64,000 nt of DNA from a virus, in the IMG/VR virus record IMGVR_UViG_3300044732_001653, positions 7,518-71,517 of that record, one strand, 5' to 3'. Shown piece after piece: positions 19,611 to 63,239 of this stretch (positions are counted from its first letter, which is position 1; every line of letters starts with the position of its first letter). The translations under genes were made by a program, and so were the position numbers. A model generated the notes under the pieces. That model saw only the letters and a list, made by a program, of their open reading frames with translations. It had not been told where the DNA came from and made no database searches.

Positions 19611-19979
19611 CTAGCTAGCTGTCATCTCCGCGATTTCCGCCTCTTCGGCGGGGGACAGGAGGTGAACAGAGGCCACCTCGGCGAGCGTGGACATCTCCGG
19701 CCTCTCGACTTGCCAGATGGCTTCGTCGATGGCCTGGGGGGCCGTGCAAGCCTGAACCACGCAAAGTTCCGAGTCGATCACGGTGTCGGGCTCCTCGGAC
19801 ACCGGGTCTCGCCAGCCAACCAGAACTGCGTACCTGCGGATCGCTGGCCCCATGGTTCCCTCCATTTCGCCAAGGTGTCCTAGGTCGCGGGCTGCGACCT
19901 CCGGCGAGAACTCTAGGGGATCGACTGCAATGAGGTCAAGAGGGGCGCTTGCGCTTCGTGCCGCCGGGCTTTTTCTCAC
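19611..19979 (-). CDS. Acidic hypothetical protein (start uncertain)
   Basis: Open frame between neighbouring minus-strand genes. Confidence 0.5.
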   Translation of the reverse strand: MRKSPAARSASAPLDLIAVDPLEFSPEVAARDLGHLGEMEGTMGPAIRRYAVLVGWRDPVSEEPDTVIDSELCVVQACTAPQAIDEAIWQVERPEMSTLAEVASVHLLSPAEEAEIAEMTAS

Positions 19980-20277
19980 CCCGTTTGCGGCCCGCGCACC
20001 ACGCCATGCCCGAGGCGGCTGTCGCCTCTGCTGTGTGGCGGTAGACGAGCCAGAGCAGGCCGGCGATCTGCTTCCCCTCGATCCGACCTCCGAGGGACAT
20101 TCCGGTCTCTGGGTCGAGGTGCCGCCGGAGGATTTTTGACACTGCCGAACGGTTACATCCGAGAACCTTGACGGCCTCGGTGACGGTGATCAGTTCGCCG
20201 CGTTCATCCTTCATGCCCCACCTCGCGCAAACGTCTGGAAAACCAGTGCGATTTGCTTCGTGGGGGAAGGGTGTCAA
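19936..20277 (-). CDS. HTH DNA-binding protein (repressor/excisionase-like)
   Basis: 'ITVTEAVKVLGCNRSAVSKIL'; divergent from integrase. Confidence 0.7.
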   Translation of the reverse strand: MTPFPHEANRTGFPDVCARWGMKDERGELITVTEAVKVLGCNRSAVSKILRRHLDPETGMSLGGRIEGKQIAGLLWLVYRHTAEATAASGMAWCAGRKRGEKKPGGTKRKRPS

Positions 20278-20364: not shown

Positions 20365-21261
20365 ATGGACGCCACTCAGGAGACTCATGTCATGTTGCTA
20401 CGCGAACTGCTCGATAAGGACTACGCGATCGTCCGCGGGCTGCGGCCCAAGGCTGTCTATCAAGTTCGGCTCACACTCTCCCGTTGGTCCGATTTTCTCG
20501 GGAGAGGACCGACTACAGCGGATTTGCTGAATCTGCGGGTGATGGAGTTTCTCCATCACCGGAAAAGCGAGGTCAGCCTCGGGACAGTCCTCAAGGATCG
20601 CAACGGCATCTGCGGCCTCTGGAACTACGCGGCCAAGCAAGACCGAACGCTACCGTTCCCGACATTGCCCCCCATGAGCCCCATCAAGCGGGCGCCGCGC
20701 GCCTACACGATCGAGGACATCTCCAAGGTCATCCGGGTCGCCAAGGCCCTCCCAGGCGACGTCATGGGCGTCCAGCGGGGGCTGTGGTGGGCGACGATCT
20801 TTCGGACGGCATTCGAGACCGCCGAACGCCACGGCGCCCTGGCGGCTCTGCGGTGGAGCGAGGTCGACCTCCCCGGCCGGCTGATCACCTTCCTGGCCGA
20901 GGGGCGGAAGGGGGGCGGCCAGGACATCCAGCGGGAGATCAGCGGTGAACTGGCGTCGTGGCTCGACGAGATGCGGAGGGAGCCGGGAGAACTCGTCTGG
21001 CCGTGGAAGGGCGTCGAGTCGTCGCAGTGGCAGGAACTCGGCCGAATCTGCACCCTCGCGCAGGTCACGAATCGAGGATTTCACGGGTTTCGCAAGTCAA
21101 ACGCCTCCTATTTGACCGCGGCCAGAGGGGTCGGGGCAGCGTCTGAACAGTTGGGTCATAGCTCCAGTTCGGTAACGCTACGGCACTATGTCGACAGGTC
21201 CATCGCGAAGCCGAAAGAGACGGCAATCGACCTGCTTCCGCCGCTCAATTTGGGGGAATAG
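20365..21261 (+). CDS. int: Tyrosine recombinase/integrase
   Basis: Catalytic R (TAERHGAL), K (GRKG), HxxR (FHGFRK), LGH, and Y (TLRHY). Confidence 0.92.
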   Translation: MDATQETHVMLLRELLDKDYAIVRGLRPKAVYQVRLTLSRWSDFLGRGPTTADLLNLRVMEFLHHRKSEVSLGTVLKDRNGICGLWNYAAKQDRTLPFPTLPPMSPIKRAPRAYTIEDISKVIRVAKALPGDVMGVQRGLWWATIFRTAFETAERHGALAALRWSEVDLPGRLITFLAEGRKGGGQDIQREISGELASWLDEMRREPGELVWPWKGVESSQWQELGRICTLAQVTNRGFHGFRKSNASYLTAARGVGAASEQLGHSSSSVTLRHYVDRSIAKPKETAIDLLPPLNLGE

Positions 21262-21327
21262 GCAAAATAGCCATTGATTCTGGCCTAGCTACCCCGCATG
21301 ATGGGGGCGTACCCCGGAGGGAGGTTC

Positions 21328-21927
21328 ATGGCAAAAAAGGGAATGGCCGACATCGCGCTCGGCAGTTACGAGGCGGCCTGCGTCACCGGCACGCAGTGGT
21401 CGAGGCCGGCGAAGCTCGCGAAAGAGGGCAAGCTGGTCTACCGGCCGTTGGAGTCGGGCTGGTCGCTGGAGAAGAAGAACGAGTTCTTCCTCTACTCGCT
21501 GCGTGACTGCGACGAGAACTACCGCGACTACTTGGAGGCGGTGGCGCTGGGCTCGCTCCCCGGCCGGAAGCGGTCGGAGGAGTGCATCGCGCAGCGTGAG
21601 CCGATGCTCGCGCGGCTCCGAGAAGTCGAGCAGATTCTGTACGACGATGCGATCGGGACGTCCGAAGCGGCGACGATCCTCGGCGTACACATCACCATGG
21701 TCAACCGCATGGTGAGAGACGGGAAACTGCGGGCTCGGAAGGCGTTCAACGACCGCCACGGTGAGGGCAAGGGCAGCGTCTACATCGTCAGCCGCCGGTC
21801 CTGCGAGGAGAACCGGCAGAAGTACACCGCCATGGAGGTGTCGGGCACGAAGACAGGATCAAAACGCAACCCAGGAAAGCGGACTGTCGCTCGGACGTCT
21901 CCGCCGAAACCGTCGAAGAAGCGATAA
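21328..21927 (+). CDS. DNA-binding protein with excisionase-like HTH
   Basis: 'IGTSEAATILGVHITMVNRMVRDGKLRA'; a second degenerate HTH near the N-terminus. Confidence 0.75.
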   Translation: MAKKGMADIALGSYEAACVTGTQWSRPAKLAKEGKLVYRPLESGWSLEKKNEFFLYSLRDCDENYRDYLEAVALGSLPGRKRSEECIAQREPMLARLREVEQILYDDAIGTSEAATILGVHITMVNRMVRDGKLRARKAFNDRHGEGKGSVYIVSRRSCEENRQKYTAMEVSGTKTGSKRNPGKRTVARTSPPKPSKKR

Positions 21928-48333: not shown

Positions 48334-48699
48334 ATGGGCGAAAGTGAAGTCAAGATTCTCACCCCCGAGGGTGGCGTGATGACGGTCAAGGGGACGGTCA
48401 TCCCCTCCGAGGTCGATCTGAACGACGAGCGGTTCGGTGCCGGCGGGATGCCGATCCTTGAGCAGCTTCGGCTCCTGGCCCAGTGGGGTCCGCTCCTCGG
48501 GCGGCTCCAGACGATCGCCATGGCGCCGACTCCTCGGGATCGGGCTCTTGCGGTCCTCGACGCTCTGGAGTTCGCGGCCGGCAAGACCTCGACGACCATT
48601 GACGACGACGCCATCGCTCACCTTGAGGCCATCCTCAAGACCGAGGAGGGCGCTGCACTGTTCAATTGGGTCGTCGCCTTGGTCACGGTGCGGGCATGA
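48334..48699 (+). CDS. Hypothetical protein
   Basis: GAGGAG RBS; 'KTSTTIDD'. Confidence 0.6.
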   Translation: MGESEVKILTPEGGVMTVKGTVIPSEVDLNDERFGAGGMPILEQLRLLAQWGPLLGRLQTIAMAPTPRDRALAVLDALEFAAGKTSTTIDDDAIAHLEAILKTEEGAALFNWVVALVTVRA

Positions 48700-51036: not shown

Positions 51037-51782
51037 TGGCGATTGTTGACGAGCAAGACAACTTCGGAAAGCGGATCGCCGAGGTGCTGGGGCTCAGTGC
51101 CGGGATGGTCGTCGGCATCGACATTCGTGTCGAGCCGGGCAACTTCGTCACGGCCACGGCGAAGATTTTCCTCAAGGAGAATCAGGTCAAGGGCCTCGGG
51201 GTCATCTTCGACGAGATGAAGTTCGTCGGGATCAAGAAGACACCGGAGTCTGCCGCTCCGGTTTTCATGCCGCCCTCGCCCGTGCCACCGACAGGGCCGG
51301 TGACGTCTCCCGTGTACTGGCCGTGCGAGACCAGGAAGTGGTTTTCGTGGCTCCCTGTCGTTCTCCTCCTCGTCGCCGGTTGCCGCCCGGCGTCCCCGCC
51401 CCCGCCGGACCTTCGGCCGTGGATCGCCGTCACTGGGGTCTACGCCCTGATGGCTCCCGCGATCGCCCCGCTCCCGCCGGCCCCGGCGCCGGGAGCCCCA
51501 TGCGAAAACTGCAATGGGAAGGGAACGGTCGGCGACGGCGTCGTCGGCAAGACCTGCCCAATCTGCGGCGGCACCGGGGTAACGCCATCCAAGGCCCCAG
51601 CAGCCCCGCTGCCGCCCGTTCCCACGGCCGGGGTGTCCGTAGACCCTCCGGCCCGTTCCGCCGCTCCGGGGGCCTCTGGTTCCCTCACACGGGGCCTGCC
51701 CGTTTCCACGGAGGAGGCCCCCACATTCCGAATCGTCTGCGAGGATGGAGTATGCCGGAAGATCAGAGTTTTGCCCCGCTGA
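51036..51782 (+). CDS. Fusion-like protein with internal lipoprotein-type signal and DnaJ-type CxxCxGxG finger
   Basis: 'LLLVAGC', 'CENCNGKG..CPICGGTG', 'CEDGVC'. Confidence 0.6.
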   Translation: MAIVDEQDNFGKRIAEVLGLSAGMVVGIDIRVEPGNFVTATAKIFLKENQVKGLGVIFDEMKFVGIKKTPESAAPVFMPPSPVPPTGPVTSPVYWPCETRKWFSWLPVVLLLVAGCRPASPPPPDLRPWIAVTGVYALMAPAIAPLPPAPAPGAPCENCNGKGTVGDGVVGKTCPICGGTGVTPSKAPAAPLPPVPTAGVSVDPPARSAAPGASGSLTRGLPVSTEEAPTFRIVCEDGVCRKIRVLPR

Positions 51783-52105
51783 AGCGGTACGTCCGCGAGC
51801 GGGGTGGCTTTCGCCTCGCCACCAGGGCGCGGTTCAGGGACCAGTGCGTCGATTGGGCTGTGGCCGACTGGCCGACCGGCGAACTGCCGGGTGAGATCGA
51901 GGCCCGCCTCCGCGAGCGGCTGGTCGCCCGCACCGAGGAGCGGTACGGCTCGATCCTCGCCACCCTGCTCATCGGCATCGCGGTCAATCTGATCTGCCGG
52001 CTGATCGTCGAGTGGTGGCTAGCCCGCCAGCTTAACCGGACCCTCATGGCAACGTGGCACTATGCCGAAACGAATCCCCCAGTTCCGCCCTCCGACCGCC
52101 CGTGA
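51752..52105 (+). CDS. Membrane protein
   Basis: 'YGSILATLLIGIAVNLICRLIVEWW'. Confidence 0.6.
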   Translation: MPEDQSFAPLKRYVRERGGFRLATRARFRDQCVDWAVADWPTGELPGEIEARLRERLVARTEERYGSILATLLIGIAVNLICRLIVEWWLARQLNRTLMATWHYAETNPPVPPSDRP

Positions 52106-52421
52106 CCGGCTCCCGGCCCGCCCCCGCGACGATGACCGGCTGTCGTCGTCGGCCCGCGGCTACGGGTCGGCAGCGTGGCAGCGGGTCCGTCTCGCCGTGA
52201 TCGCCCGCGACCAGGGAGCCTGTCGCCTTTGCGGCCTGCTTTGCTGGGGCGAGGGTGAAGCCCATGTCGATCACATCGATCCCAAGCGCCCAGGCGAGCC
52301 GGCCGAGGCCACGCCGATGGAGGGCTTGCGGCTCCTGTGCCGCAAGTGCCACTCCAGGCATGGCCTCAAGTGGTCGGCTCGGCCGGGAGGGGATTCTTCC
52401 GAGGGCGACCACGACGCTTGA
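52062..52421 (+). CDS. HNH endonuclease (terminase-associated type)
   Basis: 'RGYG..WQRVRL.V..RD..C..CG..HVDHI.P..L..LC..CHS'. Confidence 0.9.
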   Translation: MPKRIPQFRPPTARDRLPARPRDDDRLSSSARGYGSAAWQRVRLAVIARDQGACRLCGLLCWGEGEAHVDHIDPKRPGEPAEATPMEGLRLLCRKCHSRHGLKWSARPGGDSSEGDHDA

Positions 52422-52716
52422 CCGCCGTCGCCGGCGGGGACGGGGGGCGACGTTTCAGGCCGCGAGCCTTGAGTGCCGCATCAACCCCGGAGTGCGAGCA
52501 TTCGACGGCAAACATCGGGTCGGCTTTGAACTTCCACCCAGGCTCCAGCTTGTTCTCGGCGATCTTCGGGACATCAGCCTTGCGGATGATGTAGTGCCCG
52601 AAGACTTTCGTCGTGATTCCAAGCCGGTGAGCCGTTCGATAGGCCACCGATTGCTGGATTCCCGAGATCGTCGCGGCCTCGGACAACTTGACCCAATCTT
52701 CTGTCTCAATCAGCAT
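52366..52716 (-). CDS. HTH DNA-binding protein with AT-hook tail
   Basis: 'WVKLSEAATISGI', C-terminal 'KRRGRPRK'; AAGGAG RBS. Confidence 0.65.
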   Translation of the reverse strand: MLIETEDWVKLSEAATISGIQQSVAYRTAHRLGITTKVFGHYIIRKADVPKIAENKLEPGWKFKADPMFAVECSHSGVDAALKARGLKRRPPSPPATAVKRRGRPRKNPLPAEPTT

Positions 52717-52897
52717 GGTGTAGCTCCTTGAAATCATTCTTATCGAATCACTTGCAGCAGTCCATCCAGAAAATCGCGAACCGCCACGGCCAGCGGACCC
52801 CCCTGCCCTAGCTCCTGCCCCAGGCGGACCAAAAGCAGGGTACGAATCAACTCGTTCCAGCGTTTCGTCATACCCGTCTCCTCGTACCGGGGTCACG

Positions 52898-53050
52898 TCA
52901 GAGACCCCGCCGCCGCCGGCGAAGTCTCTCGGCCACCATCGCCGCCTGCCGCGCGCGTGCTGCTTGGATGTCTTGCGTGGTGGCTAGCTCCTTCGTGAGG
53001 AGAAACGCCAACCACTTTGCTTCGATGCGCTTGATTCTGTTCGTTCCCAT
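52898..53050 (-). CDS. Early-array hypothetical protein
   Basis: Starts at AAGGAACCCCCGACC-ATG. Confidence 0.55.
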   Translation of the reverse strand: MGTNRIKRIEAKWLAFLLTKELATTQDIQAARARQAAMVAERLRRRRRGL

Positions 53051-53091
53051 GGTCGGGGGTTCCTTCGTCTTGTGGGGTGTCGTTCCGTGAA

Positions 53092-53403
53092 TCAACCTTC
53101 CATCCGGCTCTCTTCGTCCTCGGCATCGAGCAGATCGCGGGCCAACCCCGCCCCCTGCTCACAGATGCCCTCGACCGTTCCGCCGCCGCCGACCCCGCCC
53201 TCGGCAATCGCCTCGGCAGCCGCGATGCCAGACTCGATCTCCCAATGGATCGCGAGGTCCGCGATCATCTCGGCCACCGACTCCTCAAAGGCCGCGCCTC
53301 TGGTACTGCGGCCGGTCATCTCCTCGTAGAGGCCCATGAGCTTCTCGGCGCGGGCATGGGCGTCGCCGCTGGTGTTCGCGGTCAGGTTGTTGGTCGTTGC
53401 CAT
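53092..53403 (-). CDS. Early-array acidic protein
   Basis: Starts at CCCCGACC-ATG; Glu/Asp rich. Confidence 0.65.
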   Translation of the reverse strand: MATTNNLTANTSGDAHARAEKLMGLYEEMTGRSTRGAAFEESVAEMIADLAIHWEIESGIAAAEAIAEGGVGGGGTVEGICEQGAGLARDLLDAEDEESRMEG

Positions 53404-53505
53404 GGTCGGGGTGTCTTTCTGTTCTAGTGGGGTAGTGTGGGCTGTCATCGTTTCGCCGGCCGGGGTTCCCATGCACGGGGGCCGGCGCCCGTGCGGGTTG
53501 TAGGT

Positions 53506-53943
53506 TCAAGACTCGATCAGCGTCCCAGGCGAGACCCTCTCCCAGATGATCGAGATGGCCGTTCGGAAGCTCTCGTACTCCGCGGACGGGGATTCATTCG
53601 TCCCGCCGTTGATGATGTCTTCCGGCTTCCAATCGCAGCCGTAGACGCGGTCATCGGGAGCGTGCGGCGTAAAGACGCCGGCCAAAGCCAAGGCCCCCCA
53701 GACGGCCATGCTGTCGAGGATGTTCCAGGGGTCGGCCGTCTCTCCGCACAGGTTCAACTGCTCGTTGATGTCGCCCTCAACGAGCGAGTCTTCCGGGTCG
53801 ATCGTTACGAACTGCCAGCCGGTTTCGTATGGCTCCGGTGCCGCCAAGGGCTCCGCGTCCCACTGCGACTCCCGCAGGAGCATGATTCCATCGGGCCCGG
53901 CGGCGGGGTATCCGATGATCCTGCGCCAGTAGATTCGTTCCAT
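53506..53943 (-). CDS. Early-array acidic protein
   Basis: GAGGAAA RBS after variant CCCCCGAACG. Confidence 0.65.
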   Translation of the reverse strand: MERIYWRRIIGYPAAGPDGIMLLRESQWDAEPLAAPEPYETGWQFVTIDPEDSLVEGDINEQLNLCGETADPWNILDSMAVWGALALAGVFTPHAPDDRVYGCDWKPEDIINGGTNESPSAEYESFRTAISIIWERVSPGTLIES

Positions 53944-54012
53944 CTCTCGTTTCCTCGTTCGGGGGTGTAATCGTCCAGGCCGGCACCGTGCCGGGGTTGC
54001 TATGGTCGGGGG

Positions 54013-54843
54013 TTAGGTCGCCTTGGCAATCGGCTCAACGCTTCCGGCAAACGGCTGGCCTTGAAACAGCCACCGACCAGCCTCGTCGCACCCGTAATCC
54101 GCCGCGTCTGTCGCAACCCATTCGGCAGCAGAGTAGGCCGCGCCGTCGTCAAGCATGACGTCGATGACCTCCCCGGCGTCGGTCGTGATTCTGTGCGTCG
54201 CAGACCATGACTCCAAGGCGGCGGCATCGCGATTCGCGAACACCTCCCTTGCCGCCTCCAGGCCAGCCTCATTCGCGGCGTCGATCGCCGCCCTCTCGTC
54301 GCTCGTCAGGTCGCCGGCCATCGTGCCGATGGCGCCGGCCGAATACCCCCAGTGTGCGCCGCACCACTGAGAGTGGAGGACACGACCATTCTTCGGCGCC
54401 TCGACGTCGAGGCGGCTGGCCCGGTCGTCGTCGGCCATGGCGATGATCGCGGCCCGGCGGTAGGCGGCACACGCCTCTTCCTGCGCCGGGTGATCCGACG
54501 GGGCCATCTCCCGCAGTCCAGCATTCCAACCGATCGTCTCGTCGGCAGTCGCAAACTCGACCGTCACCGGATCTGAGGGGGCGGCGGTGCCCTCTGCGGT
54601 GTCGATCCGCCAGCCGGCGCGGCGGGCAACGTCCTCCGCGATCATCGCCTCGTTTTCCACGTTGAGGTAGCCTTCCTCGCTGCCGACGACTTTGCCGGTC
54701 AGTTCGCCGTCGCCGTCAACCTCGGGCCACAATCCCTCCCAATCGACGGCATCGCGAGCCTCCTGCCATTCGGCGCTGCCCAAGGTCAGGCCAGCGCACG
54801 CCTCGGCGGCACGTTCGGGGGTCATTTCGTCCATCGGTCGCAT
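54013..54843 (-). CDS. Early-array acidic protein
   Basis: AGGAG RBS; very Asp/Glu rich. Confidence 0.65.
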   Translation of the reverse strand: MRPMDEMTPERAAEACAGLTLGSAEWQEARDAVDWEGLWPEVDGDGELTGKVVGSEEGYLNVENEAMIAEDVARRAGWRIDTAEGTAAPSDPVTVEFATADETIGWNAGLREMAPSDHPAQEEACAAYRRAAIIAMADDDRASRLDVEAPKNGRVLHSQWCGAHWGYSAGAIGTMAGDLTSDERAAIDAANEAGLEAAREVFANRDAAALESWSATHRITTDAGEVIDVMLDDGAAYSAAEWVATDAADYGCDEAGRWLFQGQPFAGSVEPIAKAT

Positions 54844-54919
54844 GATCGTCTCTCCTACGGGTTTCCACGTTCGGGGGCATCGGCACGTTGCCGATGCTCG
54901 TTTCGTCGTTCGGGGGGCA

Positions 54920-55177
54920 TCAACGCTGCTGCGAGTCAAGGCTCTCCCAGTGGGCCACGAGGTCGGCGTCGCCCAGGAACGACTTCCCGACTTCCTCGTG
55001 CTTGCCGTTGCTGTTGACGTAGCGGGCGAGGATTTCGCCCTTGGCGTTGCGGCGGGCTTGGCACAGGCATACGCCCCCATGGGCGGCGGGGTTGTAGTCG
55101 TCTCGGCCCACCGATCCGGTGTAGCCGGTGATGCAGATCGTCTCCCAGCGGTTCGTCAACTTGGCTTTCGTCGTCAT
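54920..55177 (-). CDS. Early-array hypothetical protein
   Basis: 'GYTGSV..NPAAHGGV..VNSNG.H.E'. Confidence 0.65.
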   Translation of the reverse strand: MTTKAKLTNRWETICITGYTGSVGRDDYNPAAHGGVCLCQARRNAKGEILARYVNSNGKHEEVGKSFLGDADLVAHWESLDSQQR

Positions 55178-55281
55178 GGTCACCGTCTCCTAGGTTTCGT
55201 GCCGTCCCCCCGCACCGGGGGTCTAGTGTCTCTCGTCTCGGCCACCCCGGCAACGCGCCGGGGTTTCCATGGTCGGGGGTG

Positions 55282-55851
55282 TCAGTCTGCCGGCCACCAA
55301 GCGGGGCGACCGCCGCCGTCGAACGCCCACGGGCAGGCCGCTCGCAGTCTCGCCCAACAGCCGGAGTGATCGGCCGCAATGGGCAGGTAGTCGATTCGCT
55401 CATACTCCCAGCCGACAATCGCCGCCGACGCCCCACGCAGGCCGGCCGCCCGCAGCATATTGGCCGCCGCGGCTATCCTCCCCGTGGCTCGCGGCGTCTT
55501 CGCCAGTTGTGCCGGCCAGCAGTAGAAGAGATGGTCAACGAACTCACTCCAGCGATCGCCCCACGAATACGACCAGTCCGGCGGATCGGTCGGAAGACCG
55601 CCCACGTCCAGCCGGAAGCGGATTTCCTCGCGGTCGGCGGCGGGGAGCCGGTCGTCGTGGAGCAGCCGACGGGCGACATTGCAGCCGAGGGTGGGGTGCC
55701 ACTCGTAATGACTGCAAGATGCTTCCAGCTTCATCGCGATCGCGATCAATTGCGTTCCCGTGAGCCGCTCCCACCTCGCCGCCTCGTCTGTGTAGACCAG
55801 GATCGCGTTGCGTTCGCCTGCGGACATCATCATCGTCTTCATCGTTCCCAT
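55282..55851 (-). CDS. Early-array hypothetical protein
   Basis: GAGGAAA RBS; flanked by repeat elements. Confidence 0.6.
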   Translation of the reverse strand: MGTMKTMMMSAGERNAILVYTDEAARWERLTGTQLIAIAMKLEASCSHYEWHPTLGCNVARRLLHDDRLPAADREEIRFRLDVGGLPTDPPDWSYSWGDRWSEFVDHLFYCWPAQLAKTPRATGRIAAAANMLRAAGLRGASAAIVGWEYERIDYLPIAADHSGCWARLRAACPWAFDGGGRPAWWPAD

Positions 55852-55926
55852 GATCGTCGTTTCCTCGTTCGGGGGTTAGGGGGTCCATCGGCCGGAGTGG
55901 CCGGTGGACGTTGGTACGGTCGGGGG

Positions 55927-56430
55927 TCAGTCAGCGGCCGAGATTTCTTCCCACACGGTCGGGCGGTTTGCTTTGAGCCAGTCCAGTGCTTCGTCTTGGT
56001 TTACGTCGACCTCAAACCCGACGCCCGCAAGCCGGCAATAGTCGAGAACTTCCCCCACCTGCGGGTTGTCCGTCGAATCGATAGCGACGCCGTCGGCCGC
56101 TTCGCTATATCCCCAGCCTTCTGCCGCCAATTCTTCGATCTCGTCAGACGAAGCGGACGCGAGCCATTGGGCACCATCAAACGTGACTTCCTTGCGGTAG
56201 TCGTCGGAGTGAACCTTTGCCCGCACGAACACCGGGCATACCTCGGGAGGAGCCGGGGCGCCAGGATCTTTGGCGAGAATGCGGTCTAATACCATGGTCG
56301 AATCGCAGTCACAGCAATGCGGAACATCGTCGAGGCCAGCCGCGGCGACCGTGTCTTCGTCAAAGCATTCCGGGCACCGAAAAACAACTTGGGCGCTGGT
56401 GGCGTCGATCTCTTTCCATTCTGGTTCCAT
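55927..56430 (-). CDS. Early-array Zn-ribbon acidic protein
   Basis: CPEC..CCDC; 'VHSDD..V.FD..WL'. Confidence 0.65.
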   Translation of the reverse strand: MEPEWKEIDATSAQVVFRCPECFDEDTVAAAGLDDVPHCCDCDSTMVLDRILAKDPGAPAPPEVCPVFVRAKVHSDDYRKEVTFDGAQWLASASSDEIEELAAEGWGYSEAADGVAIDSTDNPQVGEVLDYCRLAGVGFEVDVNQDEALDWLKANRPTVWEEISAAD

Positions 56431-56519
56431 CGTCTGGGTTCCTTTGGTTGTGGGCATCGACGCGGCGCCGCTGCCCGTTTCGTCGTTCCGGGGGTCGTTC
56501 GTTTCTACGGTCGGGGTAT

Positions 56520-56768
56520 TCAGGCTCGCCCCTCGGCCAGCGCCCTCATGTCGTCAATCAATCCTTGATTCGCCCCGCGCAGCGAGGCCGATTGTTTCGC
56601 CCGCAGCGCGTCGATTGCTTTCCGCAAGTCGGCCGCGTCAGTACCTAGCTGGCACTGGACAAAGCACGGGGCTGTTATCTGTTTCGCGCCCGAGGCGGCT
56701 TCAAGCGTGGACAGCAAGCCGTTAGCGCGTTCGATGACTCGCTCAGTCAACTGTTTCTGAGATGGCAT
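56520..56768 (-). CDS. Early-array hypothetical protein
   Basis: AAAGGAACCC RBS. Confidence 0.6.
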   Translation of the reverse strand: MPSQKQLTERVIERANGLLSTLEAASGAKQITAPCFVQCQLGTDAADLRKAIDALRAKQSASLRGANQGLIDDMRALAEGRA

Positions 56769-56855
56769 GGTTAGGGTTCCTTTGTCTCGGGGTTCCTACG
56801 GTCGGGGGGGCGCCGCCGACGTTGACGGCGCCCCGTTGCTACGGTCGGGGGTCAA

Positions 56856-57059
56856 TCAGCGGGTACGCACCATCCGATAAATCACGCCCTCGCGATCCTT
56901 GACGCACACCGATTCCCCGGTGTCGAGCGATCGCCAATCCTTTTCCCCCGGCGCACTGACAACCGCCGCGAGCAGGGCGTTATCGGCGGGGACGTCGGCC
57001 AGTCCGAAAACGGGGGAATCGTGTCGGGTATCCAAGAGAGTGAAGGCTTTCGTTTCCAT
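56856..57059 (-). CDS. Early-array hypothetical protein
   Basis: AGGAAACCCCGACA-ATG. Confidence 0.6.
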   Translation of the reverse strand: METKAFTLLDTRHDSPVFGLADVPADNALLAAVVSAPGEKDWRSLDTGESVCVKDREGVIYRMVRTR

Positions 57060-57152
57060 TGTCGGGGTTTCCTGTTGGGGGCATCGACGCGGCGCCGCTG
57101 CCCGTTTCCACGTTCCGGGGCATCGGCACGTTGCCGCTGCCCGTTGCTACGG

Positions 57153-57338
57153 TCATTTCGTCGCGGCTAGATACTCGGCCGCCCGCTCTATCTCCGTTTC
57201 TACTGCCGTCGCGGCCCGCTGGTAGCGGTGCTGGTCGATCACGCCGCGATTGCGCAGGTCTGCGGCTTCCGCGAAAGCCGCGTCGGCATTCACGATGGCC
57301 GCGAGGATCGCGCGGGGGGTTTCTGTGGCGGTTGTCAT
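57153..57338 (-). CDS. Early-array hypothetical protein
   Basis: AAGGAACCCCCCGACC-ATG. Confidence 0.6.
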   Translation of the reverse strand: MTTATETPRAILAAIVNADAAFAEAADLRNRGVIDQHRYQRAATAVETEIERAAEYLAATK

Positions 57339-57386
57339 GGTCGGGGGGTTCCTTGTCGGGGGTGGCGGTTATGGCTTGTGGGGTGC

Positions 57387-57884
57387 TTAGTCCGCAAACG
57401 ATCCGAAAGCCTGACAGTAGGACAAGAGCGTTTCGCCGCTCCCCTCGCCGCCGTAGTGGTGCGTCCACGGCTTCCCCCAGTCTTGCACTTCAAGCCACGC
57501 GCGACTCGGCTCCCCGTGTTCGTCCAGTTCGGCCATTACCCGCACCGCCGGCCCGCCAGTAGCCAACAAGACTTCTACTCGGTCGGCTTGCCAAACGCCG
57601 TCCACCCGCTCCCCGAAAACCCGGATAGACAAAGGGTCTTCCGCGATTCGCTGCTCCGCGGAATCGCGGTCGGCATGATCCCCCGCCGCCGTGTCGAGCG
57701 CCGCCAGTTCGGCCGCGTCTTCCGGGTTTGCTGCCGCCCACGCGGCGGGATCGTCGGCGCTATCGCAATCGGCCCGCAGTTCGTCGCGGCGCTCGAAATC
57801 GCAATTGAGCGCGGCCACCATTTCCGCGATTCCCGCGTAGGCGGGGGCGCCGATTTCCTCAATCCAATTGTTGTCGTTGCTCAT
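57387..57884 (-). CDS. Early-array conserved phage protein
   Basis: 'EDPLS..EVLLATGGPAVR...L..QDWG.PW'. Confidence 0.75.
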   Translation of the reverse strand: MSNDNNWIEEIGAPAYAGIAEMVAALNCDFERRDELRADCDSADDPAAWAAANPEDAAELAALDTAAGDHADRDSAEQRIAEDPLSIRVFGERVDGVWQADRVEVLLATGGPAVRVMAELDEHGEPSRAWLEVQDWGKPWTHHYGGEGSGETLLSYCQAFGSFAD

Positions 57885-57966
57885 GGTCGGGGGTTCCTTT
57901 GTCTATGGTTTCAACGGTCGGGGGGGCATCGGCAACGCGCCGCTGCCCGTTGCTACGGTCGGGGGG

Positions 57967-58371
57967 TCAATAGCTGGGGAGATTGGAGACTGGCCCGGCC
58001 AGACGTACCGTCTGGAGAATGCGGTAGCCCATCTCCTGCGCCGCCTGCGCGGCCGCAGATTCAGACTTACGAATTGTCGCCACGCTAGAACCGCCGTCGG
58101 TTAGGACGCGCCAATCGTCGGCCGATTCTTGCCACACAATCGCGGGCATGGTCGGTGGGGCGTCGGGCATCTGCCGGGCATCCCACAAAGCCGCGCAGGC
58201 GGCCGCGGCAGACGGGTAGACGGTAGGCCATTGCCGCCCGCCACGCTCCACACACCAGCGGCCGCGGCCGCCGATAACGAGCCCGGCAATCCGATAGCCG
58301 TCGGCGGCCGATCGGACAAAGTATCTGCCGGCGCCTACGCGCTCCTTGCTCCACTCGATTGTCGTTGCCAT
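57967..58371 (-). CDS. Early-array hypothetical protein
   Basis: AGGATACCCCGACC-ATG. Confidence 0.6.
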   Translation of the reverse strand: MATTIEWSKERVGAGRYFVRSAADGYRIAGLVIGGRGRWCVERGGRQWPTVYPSAAAACAALWDARQMPDAPPTMPAIVWQESADDWRVLTDGGSSVATIRKSESAAAQAAQEMGYRILQTVRLAGPVSNLPSY

Positions 58372-58450
58372 GGTCGGGGTATCCTGTTTGTGGTTCCATC
58401 GGTCGGGGGCCGGCACCGCGCCGCCCCCCGTTGTCATGGTCGGGGGTCAA

Positions 58451-58960
58451 TCACTCCAAACAGATAGAAGAGCCGCAGATCACTTTTCCGTTTTTCGTAA
58501 TCACCGTTTCGATATCAACGGAGCGATAGCTAGAGACTCCGGCCGGGTACGCGCCAAAGGCGACAAACCCAAGCCCCTCATTACGGGTCTTTATAGAGCC
58601 GCGAGAGTAGGACAGGGTGAGACGAAACCCTGCCAGTAGGAGCGCCGCCACGGTCGGGCCGTGGGTGTGTACAAACTTCGCTTCCGGCACGAACACCCGC
58701 GGCCCGTCGGAATCGGAATCGTCGCCGGGGCGCCCGGTGACACTTGCGGAAATGTCCGTCTCGATAGTGACGATCGCGCAGGCATCGCCGGGGCGCTTTC
58801 CGTCCACCGCCCGGCGAAACTCGCCGCGCCATCCGTTGGCGGCCGTCGCCCAAAATGTCCATCCATCATCGGGCCTGTTTGCTACCCGCCGGAGGAATCG
58901 CTTTCCTTCCGGGGAGTCGATTGAGACGGTATCGAACGTGTCGAGCAGTGTCGTTGCCAT
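58451..58960 (-). CDS. Early-array hypothetical protein
   Basis: AGGAAACCCCCCGACC-ATG. Confidence 0.65.
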   Translation of the reverse strand: MATTLLDTFDTVSIDSPEGKRFLRRVANRPDDGWTFWATAANGWRGEFRRAVDGKRPGDACAIVTIETDISASVTGRPGDDSDSDGPRVFVPEAKFVHTHGPTVAALLLAGFRLTLSYSRGSIKTRNEGLGFVAFGAYPAGVSSYRSVDIETVITKNGKVICGSSICLE

Positions 58961-59044
58961 GGTCGGGGGGTTTCCTGTTTGGTTTCAACGGTCGGGGATC
59001 GTCGCCACGGCTACGCGCCGTGGCTTGTGGGGTAGGTTGTGGAA

Positions 59045-59398
59045 TCAATGAATCCTCGCGCCGCCGCCCATGGCGTGGGGATTGTCCCGGTATTGCCCGT
59101 CGGCGTCCCGGTAGACGAACGGCCGCACAAACCCCGCGTAGGGGTTTCCGCATGATTCGCATACGCTCCCGGTCGATCGTGAGCGGCGCCGGGTAGACTG
59201 CGGCGGGGTAGACCGCTTCCCCGTGGCGTGGCGGCACCGTTTGCATTGGTGGCGGGACGAATTGAAATCATAGGTACGCACAAACTCGCGGCCGCCGGCC
59301 GACGTCGGCACAAAAACGCGGGTTATCCATGAGGCGGCCGGACGGGGAGCGGCTAGCGCCGCTTCCATTGTTCGATAGATCATGATCGGGGTTTCCAT
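59045..59398 (-). CDS. Early-array Zn-finger protein
   Basis: CKRC..CESC; starts at CCCCGACC-ATG. Confidence 0.6.
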   Translation of the reverse strand: METPIMIYRTMEAALAAPRPAASWITRVFVPTSAGGREFVRTYDFNSSRHQCKRCRHATGKRSTPPQSTRRRSRSTGSVCESCGNPYAGFVRPFVYRDADGQYRDNPHAMGGGARIH

Positions 59399-59468
59399 GG
59401 TCGGGGTTTCTACGGTCGGGGGGGCGCCGCCGACGTGACGGCGCCCGTTGCTATGGTCGGGGGGTGGG

Positions 59469-59873
59469 TCAATCGGGGGAGAAATAAATCAAGCCATCGT
59501 CGCCGGGGTAGACGTCAACGACGCCGAATGAATGCGCCGACGCGGTCAATCTCTCGCCGGATTCCTCCGGCCAGTCTCCATCCCAAAAGCCGGCGCCGTG
59601 GTGGTTTCTGGTCAAGAAAAAATCATGGCCGGCGCGCTCTTCCGGGGAGTAGTCCGGCCCACAACGGACGGGGCCGCCGTCGATATCCTCCCGGTTAGCC
59701 GCCGCAAATGCGGCGCAGTCTCGCCGCGCTTTATCGAGCGCGGCCGGGGCAAAATCATCGACAGTAAACCGCGAGTCGAGAGGGTTTCCGTTTTCATCGG
59801 TAGACGCCCAAAGGGCCGTTTCTAGGTACGCGGGCAGGATGGCGGCGGCGGTCTGGTCTGGTGTCGTTTCCAT
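59469..59873 (-). CDS. Early-array conserved phage protein
   Basis: 'AYLETALWAS..DC..F..AGHDFFLTRNHHGAGFWD..YPGDDG.IY'. Confidence 0.8.
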   Translation of the reverse strand: METTPDQTAAAILPAYLETALWASTDENGNPLDSRFTVDDFAPAALDKARRDCAAFAAANREDIDGGPVRCGPDYSPEERAGHDFFLTRNHHGAGFWDGDWPEESGERLTASAHSFGVVDVYPGDDGLIYFSPD

Positions 59874-59947
59874 GGTCGGGGGGTTTCCTATGGTTGGGGG
59901 CATCGACGTGGCGCCGCTGCCCGTTTCGTCGGTCGGGGGGGGGTAAT

Positions 59948-60565
59948 TCAGGCTTCCGGCGAATCGCCGCGGGCGATGGCCGCCGCGAGTTTCCGCGCGC
60001 CGGTAACGGTTCGGGCCGTCCTAACAAGCCATCCGGCGGGATGGTGGGGGGAGCGTCGAACCATATAGACGCCGTTTTCCCGGCTAATCGTCGCGGCATT
60101 GCCGCGGCGGGTTATGGTTTGCGTTAGGCCGCAGGAAAAGCCGTAAGGGGTCGGCGTACCGTCGGCGGCCGCGGTTGTGGTGTTTACGGTCGGGGGGGAG
60201 ACTCGCCGACGTCGCAAGCGCAGAATCATCCCCGGCCCCTGCCCCCGGCCGTACCATCGGGCGCCGTCAAACGCGGTGACGTCGACAGTACAGTAGCCGT
60301 ATGAATTGCCGCCGATACGGCCGACGTGATGACGGGAATACGTCACGCGCCCGACGATCCCCCCCGGCCATGTCTGGACGGTTTTACCGTCGGCGGAAAG
60401 GTAGCCGGTAAACCTGTCATGCCCGGCCATATATTCGCGCTCCCGACGGGTGGAGCAGGGGTAGCATACTTTCCGGCCGTCTCCATCTAGAGCGTATCCC
60501 GTGGGGCCGACGGTATCGGGTTTGGCAATCGCGGCGCCGCAATCGCGGCAGTGTGTCGCTTCCAT
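59948..60565 (-). CDS. Early-array protein, apparent fusion of two units
   Basis: N-part 'CRDCG..TGYA..VCYPC..GYLS..TWPG..WYG.G'; C-part 'TPYGFSCG'; repeat motif at the junction. Confidence 0.65.
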   Translation of the reverse strand: MEATHCRDCGAAIAKPDTVGPTGYALDGDGRKVCYPCSTRREREYMAGHDRFTGYLSADGKTVQTWPGGIVGRVTYSRHHVGRIGGNSYGYCTVDVTAFDGARWYGRGQGPGMILRLRRRRVSPPTVNTTTAAADGTPTPYGFSCGLTQTITRRGNAATISRENGVYMVRRSPHHPAGWLVRTARTVTGARKLAAAIARGDSPEA

Positions 60566-60668
60566 AGCCGGGGGTTTCCTGTTTGGGTTTCCATGGTCGG
60601 GGGCATCGGCTACGCGCCGCGGCCCGTTTCTACGGTCGGGGGTCGATCGAATGACTAGCGGGGTAGGC

Positions 60669-61016
60669 TCAATCGTAGTTTCCGCGCTCCACGATATCGC
60701 CCCATGATCCGACGGCCCAACGGCCGCGGCCGGTCGGGCGCCCCGACTCGTTGACGCCGTCGATGTACAGAATCGTCGGGGTATAGGTATCGCCCGTGTT
60801 TGCATATTCAATCGACGGGGAACGGGCGCCGCGGCCGGGGGGAATCAATTCGGCGCCGTAACAGCCGGGCAAAGTGGCGCTAATACTTTCCATGGTGTTA
60901 GTGACGAATCGCGGCCGGGTTTGTTCGTGTTGTTCCATGAGCCGTCTAACGGCCCGCGCGCATTCAATCGAAACGGAAAGCCGCGCGGAAATCGTCTTAG
61001 GGGTAGGTATTGCCAT
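60669..61016 (-). CDS. Early-array conserved phage protein
   Basis: 'YGAE..EYANTGDTY.PTI....VGSWGDIVE'. Confidence 0.75.
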   Translation of the reverse strand: MAIPTPKTISARLSVSIECARAVRRLMEQHEQTRPRFVTNTMESISATLPGCYGAELIPPGRGARSPSIEYANTGDTYTPTILYIDGVNESGRPTGRGRWAVGSWGDIVERGNYD

Positions 61017-61069
61017 GGTCGGGGGGGTTCCTTTGTCTAGCGGGAGGATGAATTGCGGGGCCGTCAACG

Positions 61070-61333
61070 TCAGCCGGGGAAGGAAATGAAATGAGCTTGC
61101 GCACCGCCGGGGCCGGGCAAACAGCCGGTTCCTCCAATCGTCGCGCCCGGCCACAGTTTGGCCGCCAATTCGGCCGCGGCGGTATCATGGTTCCCGTCGG
61201 CGGATAGCTCATGGCGATAGCCGCAGTAAATCCGGCGGCCGCTACCAGACGTGGCGCTAATCCTGCTCCCGCGGGTATCGGTCGGGCCGTGGAACCGGGT
61301 AACAATGACGGGAACGGTTTTCGGGCTTGTCAT
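61070..61333 (-). CDS. Early-array conserved phage protein
   Basis: 'IVTRFHGPTDTRGSRISAT..Y.HELS..NH..AA..L'. Confidence 0.75.
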   Translation of the reverse strand: MTSPKTVPVIVTRFHGPTDTRGSRISATSGSGRRIYCGYRHELSADGNHDTAAAELAAKLWPGATIGGTGCLPGPGGAQAHFISFPG

Positions 61334-61398
61334 GGTCGGGGGGTATCCTGTTTGGGGTTTCCACGGTCGGGGGGTCGGGGTTTCATCGCACGGGGGTA

Positions 61399-61428
61399 AA
61401 TCTAAGATAACCTATCGGCAGACGTCAA
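61399..61428 (-). promoter_or_regulatory. Early promoter driving the cassette array
   Basis: Minus strand TTGACG-N18-TAGATT. Confidence 0.7.
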
Positions 61429-61522
61429 GCGGAATATTTAGGGGCCGGGTTTTTCGCGGTTTCTACGCTCGTTTCCACGGTCGGGGGGGTATCGTTTCCA
61501 CGGCCGGGGGGGCTTCGTTTCT

Positions 61523-61794
61523 ACGGTCTCGGGATGATCGGCAGTCCTGTCCCCGGTGACTCGGGCGCCCACGGCGGCCACGAGCCCCCGACGGTCTCGG
61601 GATGATCGGCAGTCCTGTCCCCGGTGACTCGGGCGCCCACGGCGGCCACGAGCCCCCGACGGTCTCGGGATGATCGGCAGTCCTGTCCCCGGTGACTCGG
61701 TCGCCCACGGCGGCCACGAGCCCCCGACGGTCTCGGGATGATCGGCAGTCCTGTCCCCGGTGACTCGGGCGCCCACGGCGGCCACGAGCCCCCG
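61523..61794. repeat. 68-bp tandem repeat x4
   Basis: Copies start at 61523, 61591, 61659 and 61727; one substitution in copy 3. Confidence 0.97.
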
Positions 61795-61803
61795 GGGAAA
61801 GGA

Positions 61804-62214
61804 TCAAACGCAATCCCAGACTAGTTTCCCGTCGGCGTCGTATACCGATACGTTACCATGGCAATTTACCATGATGAAATCATCATCCGCCGGAAGGGTT
61901 TCGGGGAAATCGTCATACTTTGTCAATTCGTCTAGTTCAGACCAGCTAGGCCAGAAACCAAAATCACTACCATCCCCTTCGTGAGCGCCAAAGTAAGTGT
62001 AGGGGAGCGCCAATTCGTTCAGGATATCCTCCAGCGCGGAAATGATTTCCCCGGATTCATCATCGATGAATCCATAGGATTCAATATCCTTGACTCTTTC
62101 AAGGAAAGTAGAATCGTCAGCCTGTTTTTCATCGGCAAGGCGAAGCGCGCATGCCAGAAACGATTCAAACAAGTCTTCCGGCCGTAGTGTACCGTGGGAA
62201 ATGGAACCAATCAT
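61804..62214 (-). CDS. Early acidic conserved phage protein
   Basis: 'GSISHGTLRPEDL..F..L..YFGAHEGDGSDFGFW..VNCHGNV'. Confidence 0.75.
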   Translation of the reverse strand: MIGSISHGTLRPEDLFESFLACALRLADEKQADDSTFLERVKDIESYGFIDDESGEIISALEDILNELALPYTYFGAHEGDGSDFGFWPSWSELDELTKYDDFPETLPADDDFIMVNCHGNVSVYDADGKLVWDCV

Positions 62215-62264
62215 TGTGGGAATCCTTTGTCTAGTGTGGTGGAAAGTGTGGGGGGGGAAGGAAA

Positions 62265-62741
62265 TCAATCGCGGTTTTTTGGGGCTTTGTATCTGGCAAG
62301 GCGATAGCGTTTCTTGACGTCACCAATCTTGGAAAACGTCAACGGATAGCTATCAAGGTTTTCCCATCCATGGTATTCCCCAATAGCCTCATATCCGCGC
62401 GCCAGATCGACAGGGTCGGAAGAACAAAGTAGCGCCGTCAATTCTCCCTGTTCCATTCCCGTATACTGTTCGACACTGTCGATGGAATCGGCAAACCATT
62501 CCGGGGAATGCGGATGAAACTTGTTGGCGGACAGGATACCGTCGGTAACGGTACAGCGTTCCAAGATGAAACGGTAAACAGTCCATTCCCCTCCGCTATC
62601 GGAATCCGGGGGAATGAGTTTTTCCCCCTCCGGCGGATAGACTCCCGTTGAATCGCGAACGATCCATAGTCCGCCGTATTCAATCGGGTTTGTATCGCCA
62701 ATCTGCGCTACAAACTTCCAATTCGGCTTGGCTGTTCTCAT
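62265..62741 (-). CDS. Early conserved phage protein
   Basis: 'GDTNPIEYGG..D.TGVY..E..IG.YHGWENLDSYP'. Confidence 0.7.
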   Translation of the reverse strand: MRTAKPNWKFVAQIGDTNPIEYGGLWIVRDSTGVYPPEGEKLIPPDSDSGGEWTVYRFILERCTVTDGILSANKFHPHSPEWFADSIDSVEQYTGMEQGELTALLCSSDPVDLARGYEAIGEYHGWENLDSYPLTFSKIGDVKKRYRLARYKAPKNRD

Positions 62742-62789
62742 GACGTGGAAATCCTTTGTTTAGTGGGGGAATGAATTGCGGGGGGCTTT

Positions 62790-63200
62790 TCAGACGGCGG
62801 AATCGTTTTCCAACTCGATCGACACTGACTCCAATTCGGAAGAATGTTCGGCAAAGAAACGGACAATGAACGGGGGGAAAAGGTTTTCGGTAGTGTCGTC
62901 TGAATCATCGCGCTGTTTTCCCTGTCGCTCCCGATACTCTCGCGATTCAACGGCGGCCGACAGAAACGCCAACAAAGCGCAGAATGATTTCCGTACCGTT
63001 TCATCGTTCCATTCTTCACCAACTCCCGTGGAAAGAGCGATTTCCGTAAAGGATTTTTTGCCCGGTCGATCGTAGTGTGTGGCGAGAGTACAACGATTGT
63101 CCGCGGAATAATCGTGAAACTCTAGGGAAATCGTACAGTCTGCTACCTTGACGGCCGGCAAAAGTCTGGCGGAAATCATGATGGGGGATTCAAGATTCAT
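62790..63200 (-). CDS. Early conserved phage protein
   Basis: 'ISARLLPA..LLAFLSAAVES..LFP'. Confidence 0.65.
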   Translation of the reverse strand: MNLESPIMISARLLPAVKVADCTISLEFHDYSADNRCTLATHYDRPGKKSFTEIALSTGVGEEWNDETVRKSFCALLAFLSAAVESREYRERQGKQRDDSDDTTENLFPPFIVRFFAEHSSELESVSIELENDSAV

Positions 63201-63239
63201 TTTTTGGGTTTCCTTTGTTGGGGGAGTGTTGGGGGGATA

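Follow-up and report, generated by a model that had tools for sequence, protein, structure and literature searches.

A codon-phased 17-nt repeat in the linker cassettes between small early genes of an uncultured lake-water phage

The present analysis concerns a short repeat in the genome of an uncultured lake-water phage. We examined a stretch of 64,000 nt (the window in the following), which comprises bases 7,518-71,517 of the 71,517-bp IMG/VR record IMGVR_UViG_3300044732_001653, a record that is rated complete by CheckV and has a GC content of 63%. The repeat occupies the spacers of a leftward, i.e. minus-strand, early array of 19 small ORFan genes (g1-g19; 52740..61341, delineated from open reading frames (ORFs), their translations and the GC content at third codon positions (GC3)), with 18 linker cassettes between them, and in part of its copies the start codon and the first codons of the following gene belong to the conserved block. 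With a probability of roughly 55%, these linkers are intergenic expression cassettes comparable to the promoter-early stem-loop (PeSL) cassettes of T4-type phages and to the start-associated sequences (SAS) of Cluster K mycobacteriophages, and double as a homology patch for gene shuffling. The repeat would then be the core of a composite linker cassette that punctuates a leftward early operon, and it might act as a cis element of the translation initiation or gene-boundary region on early transcripts.

The repeat can be described as an oriented 17-nt motif, CCCCGAMC-NNN-GMAAC-S, whose copies are direct repeats. The 8-mer CCCCGACC, its 5' half in the dominant variant of this phage, is present 34 times in the window compared to 7.15 +/- 3.01 expected occurrences; the largest count in a shuffled sequence was 15 and none of 100 shuffles reached 34. 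Thirty of the 34, the exact copies in the following, lie between 53,051 and 61,486 on the minus strand. A scan of the whole genome with the 16-nt pattern CCCCGA[AC]C-N3-G[ACG]AAC, in which up to one mismatch was tolerated, resulted in 36 copies on the minus strand and one on the plus strand, with none for the reversed controls. All 36 are located within 51,633-61,509, that is, only in the non-structural arm: 32 in the 18 intergenic spacers of the array, which by our own summation amount to 1,355 nt of its 8,594-nt span, three at the array head, and one stray copy at 51,633. No motif copy lies wholly inside an annotated ORF. The stray copy (CCCCGGCC GTG GGAACG; 51617-51633, minus strand) is situated outside the array among clade-conserved plus-strand genes and is probably a chance match or a relic. 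A role in pairing with an antisense partner was dropped, since the plus strand has just one copy, and a role as Chi-like protection sites was dropped as well (no search aimed at such sites was made), since the restriction to intergenic regions and the phasing to codons argue against it.

The cassettes show a recurrent anatomy. In a typical spacer, the stop codon is followed by a first motif copy (a), a GC-rich hairpin, a second copy (b), a purine-rich Shine-Dalgarno sequence (acaggaaa or acaaaggaa) and a third copy (c) with a central ATG, and spacers commonly hold two or three copies. Copy a starts 1-9 nt past the stop codon in 10 spacers, and nine copies have an offset of 8 nt to the start codon. 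A local GC-rich hairpin is present in 14 of the 18 spacers, with differing stem sequences; the case for it rests on the recurrence of its position and not on thermodynamics. Within copy c, the 5' half CCCCGACC constitutes the distance between Shine-Dalgarno sequence and start, the triplet is the initiation codon, and G(A/C/G)A-AC(G/C) provides codons 2 and 3. Since the 3' half of the motif forms these codons, unrelated ORFan proteins begin with M-(E/A/G)-T.

Several cassettes exhibit this order in full or in large part (all coordinates of the array refer to the minus strand). Between g4 and g5 (59390..59462), copy a (59462) is followed by the hairpin, copy b (59421), copy c (59406, ATG GAA ACC) and a degenerate copy with ATG (59391). 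The linker between g6 and g7 (58363..58445) consists of a copy a that itself contains ATG (58445), a hairpin, copy b (58408), a Shine-Dalgarno sequence and copy c (58379), at which g7 starts (MATT), and that between g7 and g8 (57876..57964) of copy a (57964, GTA GCA ACG), hairpin, copy b (57923, GTT GAA ACC), acaaaggaa and copy c (57892, ATG AGC AAC). In front of g6 (58952..58997), copy b (58997, GTT GAA ACC) precedes acaggaaa and copy c (58968, ATG GCA ACG ACA; MATT). Further c copies with the 5' half CCCCGACC form the starts of g1 (61325..61341, ATG ACA AGC; MTS), g2 (61008..61024, ATG GCA ATA; MAI), g4 (59865..59881, ATG GAA ACG; METT, with the same start in L084 and in P0001/P0002), g9 (57330..57346, ATG ACA ACC; MTTA), g17 (53395..53411, ATG GCA ACG; MATT, with an alternative in-frame ATG upstream at 53472) and g18 (53042..53058, ATG GGA ACG; MGTN), and a variant c copy, CCCCGACA ATG GAA ACG, that of g10 (57051..57067; METK). 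A different arrangement is found at g13, g15 and g16, where the motif lies upstream of the start. In g13 and g16, GAG-GAA-AC serves as the Shine-Dalgarno sequence: the copies CCCCGAAC GAG GAA ACG end 6 nt before the ATG of g13 (55858..55874, offset 23) and 4 nt before that of g16 (53948..53964, offset 21).

A preliminary description of this region had noticed that start codons and first codons are part of the repeat, and this observation is confirmed. Gene starts are formed by 10 of the 30 exact copies; the centre is ATG in all ten, and six of them keep G[ACG]AAC[CG] as codons 2 and 3, so the conservation crosses the ATG. Several start copies also have the fourth codon ACA in common, and up to 12 nt are shared after CCCCGACC. 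The other 20 exact copies are not gene starts, and their centres are GTA (8), ATG (3), GTG, GTT and ATA (2 each) as well as GAC, GAT and CCC (1 each). The 3' half is kept in 16 of these 20; altogether, NNN-G[ACG]AAC[CG] is present after 22 of the 30 exact copies, with the 8-mer alone as anchor. The forms quoted earlier for both classes are indeed present, namely GTA-GCA-ACG (57964 and 56850) and GTT-GAA-ACC (58997 and 57923) among the non-coding copies, and ATG-GCA-ACG (58968, 58379 and 53411), ATG-GAA-ACG (59881) and ATG-ACA-AC (57346) at gene starts. It is also correct that unrelated proteins begin alike, with MATT (g6, g7 and g17), METT (g4), MTT (g9 and g14) or MGT (g13 and g18). An M-[AEGT]-T start is found in 10 of the 19 array proteins, but in only 3 of 80 plus-strand genes, for which the starts are approximate (Fisher p = 1.3e-6), and G[ACG]AAC[CG] occupies positions +4 to +9 in 8 of the 19 array genes compared to none of the 80 plus-strand genes.

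These similar N-termini are not a sign of common descent of the proteins. The array proteins are not paralogues (the best pair, g1/g3, has E = 0.003), and none of the 19 has a Pfam match above the cut-off, with DUF7573 (g5) and Kdo (g18) as weak matches below the threshold. For g6, no relatives were found in IMG/VR. The expectation that the N-termini occur only in array-borne copies was borne out by the homologues of the g4 family and of g18. Among the best 120 of 1,521 matches of the g4 family, METTPD is found only in the two nearest ones (94% and 81% identity) and MET in five. The loci of g4 homologues lack a motif copy in all 61 IMG/VR cases (845 kb) and in 79 of 80 metagenome cases, with the contig L084 as the exception. 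The g18 orthologues in three relatives begin with M-[TS]-N-R-I and have the motif, where it is visible, further upstream, whereas g18 of the window begins with M-G-T-N-R-I. In the g19 homologue of L020, the motif is found in another frame, within codons 2-7. These comparisons indicate that the shared N-termini belong to the motif-borne copies and not to the protein families.

Since the motif recurs at every gene boundary, the cassettes may serve as a homology patch, by which early genes would be replaced, deleted or fused between related phages through ordinary relaxed homologous recombination. The process would resemble that proposed for the PeSL cassettes of T4 and would not require a dedicated site-specific crossover at the ATG. 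The closest relative found is L084, a contig of 3.2 kb, the g4 homologue of which is identical to g4 in 93% of the amino acids and 91% of the nucleotides. In L084, the b-c cassette of g4 follows immediately on a leader with a P1-type promoter (see below). After g4, the homology to the window extends through the stop codon, copy a, the hairpin, copy b and copy c (the cassette 59390..59462 corresponds to L084 703-784) and stops right after ATGGAAAC; the next gene is a 407-aa gene in L084 and g5 in the window. A homologue of g8 is located later in L084 (69% nucleotide identity), and the cassette variant preceding it is the one found before g7 in the window, while L084 has no counterpart of g9. 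In this single comparison, the breakpoints of indels and gene replacement fall within cassettes. The three L084 proteins had no Pfam match above the cut-off.

A fusion of two genes is found in g3 (59948-60565, 205 aa), which joins in frame two families that are separate elsewhere. Of the 150 best representatives, 147 align with residues 1 to ~122; most of these are free-standing proteins with a length of 115-130 aa and no extension beyond this part, the homologues of which end at about query residue 118-124. Residues 128-204 match the three others, including P0121 (81 aa, 83-84% identical), for which no relatives were found in IMG/VR. No match among the 150 best spans both parts; the N-terminal match that extends furthest is P0124, which covers query residues 7-151. 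Between the parts lies an in-frame motif copy, CCCCGACC GTA AAC ACC (60179..60195). Residue 2 of P0121 aligns with residue 128 of g3, and the methionine of P0121 thus falls on the GTA codon at residue 127, i.e. on the motif centre, so that two genes are joined in frame through a motif copy. Judging from this alignment, a gene that exists separately in a relative once started at this copy. The codon preceding the motif-encoded V-S-P-P-T of g3 is CGA, at the position where the homologues of the first part end, and it would be consistent with a lost stop codon.

The preliminary description had placed a crossover point at or just inside the start codon, by which any incoming ORF would be fused in frame to a ready-made ribosome-binding site and ATG, a plug-in design for expression. 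This interpretation is only partly supported, and we regard a dedicated capture system of this type, in which a site-specific recombinase would act at this point as in an integron, as improbable. Most genes are indeed flanked by motif copies as direct repeats, the homology to L084 breaks at the 3' edge of a copy c, g3 is fused through a motif copy, the start copies are alike beyond the 8-mer, and the N-termini are specific for the array. However, a crossover at the start codon is not demonstrated by this, as similarity would end at the edge of the repeat under any mechanism. Moreover, two thirds of the exact copies (20 of 30) are not starts, and four of the ten start copies have lost the 3' half. 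The copies have three registers relative to the starts, even for the orthologous g18, and they are direct repeats and not inverted repeats of the attC type; an attC-like folding of copies a and b was discarded for this reason, with complementarity in one spacer only (57,964/57,923). Finally, no recombinase adjoins the array. The only integrase is a tyrosine integrase (20365-21261, plus strand; phrog_1, E = 2.7e-28) about 32 kb away, located in an integrase/helix-turn-helix (HTH) locus (20365-21927, plus strand) beside an HTH_17/excisionase-like protein, itself a weak HTH candidate (21298-21927). Likewise, the notion of the repeat as a start element holds for the c copies, which carry the ATG, but not for three array genes and most genes of the relatives, in which the motif lies upstream, as or before the Shine-Dalgarno sequence.

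The promoters of the region bear on the question of which molecule reads the motif. A consensus scan of the minus strand between 50,500 and 64,000 detected two sigma-70-like sites only, P1 (TTGACT-17-TAGATT, 63611-63639) and P2 (TTGACG-18-TAGATT, 61399..61428). P2 is situated at the array head, and the array itself contains no such site. The possibility that each cassette is a sigma-70 promoter was ruled out on this basis. Two other kinds of promoter were discarded as well: an extracytoplasmic function (ECF)-type promoter composed of GAAAC of one copy and CGT of the next has, judged by eye, an inconsistent spacing, and for a promoter of a phage-encoded RNA polymerase, no RNA polymerase was found among the large ORFs. 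P2 is flanked by a cluster of motif copies (61356..61509) at 61509, 61486 and 61380/61372, with a degenerate copy at ~61398. One contig of a lake-water sequencing run (X15) agrees with the window as far as the motif cluster downstream of P2 (61355-61373; end 61372) and then goes on with a variant motif copy, which indicates a population variant of the array head.

This arrangement at P2, with copies upstream (61509 and 61486) and downstream (61380/61372), would be expected if the motif were a stoperator-like operator, i.e. an asymmetric DNA site at the early promoter and within the early operon, through which a phage regulator (an immunity repressor or an early/late switch) silences or gates expression. 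The relatives have a similar array head: tandem repeats, the units of which are unrelated in sequence and length, come directly before 3-5 tandem motif copies, and a promoter-like TTGAC site lies just downstream of these. The single orientation and the location in short intergenic spaces are also known from L5-type stoperators, as far as these are described in PMC9283540. Since a tyrosine integrase and HTH proteins are encoded, the phage may possibly be temperate, and a dominant motif variant that is specific for each genome is expected if the site co-evolves with a phage-encoded binder. Nevertheless, we consider this explanation unlikely, even if it is the strongest of the alternatives. The copies are confined to one arm of 8.6 kb and not distributed genome-wide, spacers contain two or three of them, and they keep exact registers to starts (offset 8 or 17-24) and stops (1-9 nt), for which a DNA roadblock has no need. 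A repressor was not found either, with the protein beside the integrase and a small divergent protein (19936-20277, minus strand) as the only, weak HTH candidates.

Alternatively, the motif could be an operator or processing site on the early polycistronic mRNA, with c copies being occluded at the start and a and b copies acting as decoys or cleavage sites that set transcript stability together with the hairpin. The reader would be an RNA-binding protein or a nuclease, encoded by the phage or the host, with RegA and RegB of T4 as the model. The restriction of the copies to the transcribed strand, the 27 cases in 13 genomes in which the motif spans the start codon (strict filter), the hairpin adjoining the motif in most spacers and the difference between start copies, all with ATG, and the mostly GTA, GTT or ATA centres of the other copies in the window genome are consistent with this. 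On the other hand, the copies of the head cluster upstream of promoter-like sites do not fit, no candidate for an RNA-binding protein was found, and the region had no Rfam match at the gathering threshold. A search of sequencing runs listed no RNA run that contains the sequence. Such an operator is in our view rather unlikely, and less likely than a stoperator-like site.

Irrespective of these two specific models, a reader of the motif that acts on mRNA is somewhat favored over a DNA-binding one. The former would account for the strict strand specificity, the exact registers to starts and stops and the ATG in all start copies as opposed to mostly GTA, GTT or ATA elsewhere. A DNA-binding reader would be in line with the copies upstream of promoter-like sites, the clusters at array heads, the genome-specific variants and the tyrosine integrase, which is unrelated to integrons and hints at a temperate lifestyle. 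One could also imagine that the motif is a self-contained module for ribosome docking, a pseudo-start in which a spacer rich in C, a triplet that equals or resembles a start codon and a 3' half rich in A are combined, but we give this idea a small chance only. If true, phages of this clade would use the module directly behind every stop codon, once more behind the hairpin and at the actual start, and terminating ribosomes would be handed along the 70-100-nt spacer to the next gene, a relay-type translational coupling that has not been described before, and the repeats would at the same time be in-frame junctions for the capture and fusion of genes.

The motif is not restricted to the phage studied here. 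Pattern scans detected it in six IMG/VR contigs, and a tandem pattern detected 16 IMG/VR contigs and seven genome contigs. At least 20 related contigs carry the motif, and their hosts are probably Planctomycetota. Four of the seven genome contigs (L184, L185, L189 and L190) derive from metagenome-assembled genomes of Planctomycetota (Pirellulales, Phycisphaeraceae, Tepidisphaeraceae and Planctomycetaceae); the host link is tentative, since binning alone could have placed such contigs in those genomes. L190 and the IMG/VR record behind L017 are one and the same contig of 33,863 bp. Five whole related records contain 5-7 exact copies each on one strand, none on the other and none in the controls. 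These five have backbone genes in common with the phage of the window at 30-70% amino-acid identity, but only three array genes, g15, g18 and g19. Megablast of the window part 40,000-64,000 against GenBank phages gave no match. Text searches, which did not cover supplementary files, retrieved no description of the motif: the motif string led to unrelated primers only, and a search for intergenic repeats of Planctomycetes phages to nothing relevant.

A count over 21 genomes or loci gave 299 copies, of which 298 are on a single strand within each genome. The count left out L197 (nearly identical to L194) and L190 (the L017 contig), as well as loci with fewer than three copies or chance-like ones (L009, L011, L013-L015, L019, L021, L022, L185-L189 and L203). 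The centre of the clade consensus is GTG, and the phage of the window is the richest in ATG centres (12 of 36). In the 27 copies that span a start, the centre is the ATG or GTG start codon and is closely preceded by a Shine-Dalgarno sequence (register B8); 47 copies are located 17-24 nt before the start, with the 3' half as the Shine-Dalgarno sequence (register A), 101 copies 25-49 nt upstream of it, and 123 copies have no start nearby. The dominant variant differs by genome, being CCCCGACC in the window phage and CCCCGAAC in L199, L202 and L020.

A variable copy number (5 to 24 per locus among the relatives), the homogenization of variants within each genome and the association with hairpins are features that a selfish or neutral dispersed repeat would also show, be it similar to repetitive extragenic palindromic (REP) elements or miniature inverted-repeat transposable elements (MITEs) or a product of serial duplication, which is spread by gene conversion and overlaps with starts incidentally. 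Yet the motif has been kept throughout a clade in which the turnover of early genes is almost complete, nearly all copies have the same orientation with fixed registers to stops and starts, and no transposase was seen in the array. We therefore consider this the least probable of the explanations, and a very improbable one.

Several points weigh against the preferred interpretation as an expression cassette and homology patch. The copies at 61509 and 61486 and the head clusters of the relatives lie upstream of promoter-like sites, where a DNA-level reader fits better than an mRNA-level one, and no trans factor for the motif was found. The motif is dispensable for initiation as such, because the four genes of the module upstream of the array use the same type of Shine-Dalgarno sequence without it. 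The gene starts of g1-g19 are our own calls (based on ORFs, Shine-Dalgarno context and GC3 frames), and those of g5, g7 and g17 are ambiguous, with two in-frame ATGs each. The folding z-scores of whole spacers range from +0.45 to -3.46 and are mostly unremarkable; one of 14 spacers was better than all 200 shuffles, and for four others up to 10 shuffles were as good. With respect to gene shuffling, the breakpoints come from one close relative, the 3.2-kb contig L084, and because the repeat precedes nearly every gene, similarity is bound to end at its edge whatever the mechanism. Contigs of four lake-water DNA runs over 52,500-62,000 consist of identical pieces with no joints and no cassette indels, and are uninformative on indels.

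Upstream of the array lies a module (61804..63639, minus strand) that consists of P1 and the four genes just mentioned (61804-63566), which have a lower GC content, acaaagga-type Shine-Dalgarno sequences and no motif. The GC content is 53% in the bin 62,001-64,000, and the four proteins have no Pfam match above the cut-off. The module looks like a separate, perhaps recently acquired, immediate-early block. Tandem repeats are found at the genome end (63754-64000; 60-bp unit, at least four copies) and before P2 (61455-61830; 68-bp unit, ~4.5 copies), the two units being related to each other. In addition, an element of ttctca..., a few bases and ccaactgtcc occurs ~50-70 nt upstream of the -35 of P1-type promoters, in the window (~63719-63740, minus strand) as well as in L012, L016, L018 and L084.

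As to the remaining genome, plus-strand genes extend to ~52,421, and the genes of the right arm (52,366-63,566) are encoded by the minus strand. The plus-strand products include an SNF2 helicase, a Prim-Pol, a UvrD helicase, PhoH and a DNA methyltransferase in addition to the tyrosine integrase and the excisionase-like HTH protein, and an HNH endonuclease (52062-52421) is encoded by the last gene of this arm. ARAGORN called a tRNA-Pro (anticodon GGG; 41605-41688, plus strand) and a tRNA-His (48451-48545, plus strand); the latter, which could be a false call, overlaps completely with a predicted ORF that is conserved in the clade.

Repeated cassettes at gene boundaries are regarded as a driving force behind the fast turnover of ORFan early genes in phages, and they have been studied mainly in T4-type phages in the form of PeSLs. 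With the array described here, such cassettes are also seen in a clade of uncultured lake-water phages of high GC content, which are tentatively linked to Planctomycetota. Here, the conserved block extends beyond the start codon and determines with which residues unrelated proteins begin. The array represents a compact and testable system: its motif has 17 nt, three registers and naturally occurring variants with ATG, GTG or GTA, by which a reading at the RNA or the DNA level and the guidance of recombination could be addressed. Moreover, the motif provides a rule for calling starts in these phages, including GTG starts, and flags in-frame fusions such as g3, which can help to improve their annotation.

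A comparison with known systems shows what is shared and what is different. Integron attC sites are imperfect inverted repeats on which the adjacent IntI integrase acts. The array has in common with attI/attC systems that promoterless small ORFs in one orientation are separated by a recurring boundary element and preceded by one upstream promoter; however, the boundary copies are direct repeats, and instead of an adjacent integrase there is only the distant integrase-like gene at 20365-21261. The stoperators of Cluster A mycobacteriophages (e.g. L5), according to the parts of PMC9283540 that deal with them, are genome-wide sites of a known monomeric repressor. Both elements are asymmetric, have more than 20 copies, occur in promoter regions and short intergenic spaces and are oriented with transcription, but the copies of the lake-water phage are confined to one arm and phased to codons.

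The SAS/ESAS elements of Cluster K mycobacteriophages are closer in kind. As they are presented in the relevant parts of Pope et al. 2011 (PMC3203893), the SAS is a 13-bp sequence, 5'-GGGATAGGAGCCC, with the Shine-Dalgarno sequence inside it and a distance of 3-7 bp to the start downstream, and no function was assigned to it in that paper. Like the motif described here, it is short and asymmetric, has one orientation and many copies, is restricted to the non-structural arm, is phased to starts with a preference for ATG, is often located beside an upstream paired-repeat element and is conserved before different gene families. The motif described here differs in sequence, overlaps the start (offset 8) or sits 17-24 nt or further upstream, and is also found after stop codons and two or three times per spacer.

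The PeSLs are mobile regulatory cassettes of T4-type phages, as characterized in the pertinent sections of Arbiol et al. 2010 (PMC2839356) and Comeau et al. 2014 (PMC4122927). In both cases, small ORFan genes of a hyperplastic early region are separated by composite repeats, which begin at the stop codon of one gene and continue up to the Shine-Dalgarno sequence and start codon of the next (PMC2839356), and both are located at sites of gene insertion, deletion or replacement between relatives. The PeSLs contain a stable stem-loop, to which the local hairpins of the spacers described here may correspond. Mini-circles that are excised by recombination of adjacent cassettes are a further trait of PeSLs, and joints of this kind did not occur in the contigs of the four lake-water runs. 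In contrast to the cassettes of the lake-water phage, each PeSL carries a sigma-70 promoter. Conversely, two or three copies of a 17-nt motif per cassette and a conserved block including the start codon and codons 2 and 3 are particular to the lake-water phage, and GC content and host lineage differ as well. The array thus belongs to a known kind of element, the phage gene-boundary cassette, and what is new here is that the conservation continues across the start codon into the first codons of the gene that follows.

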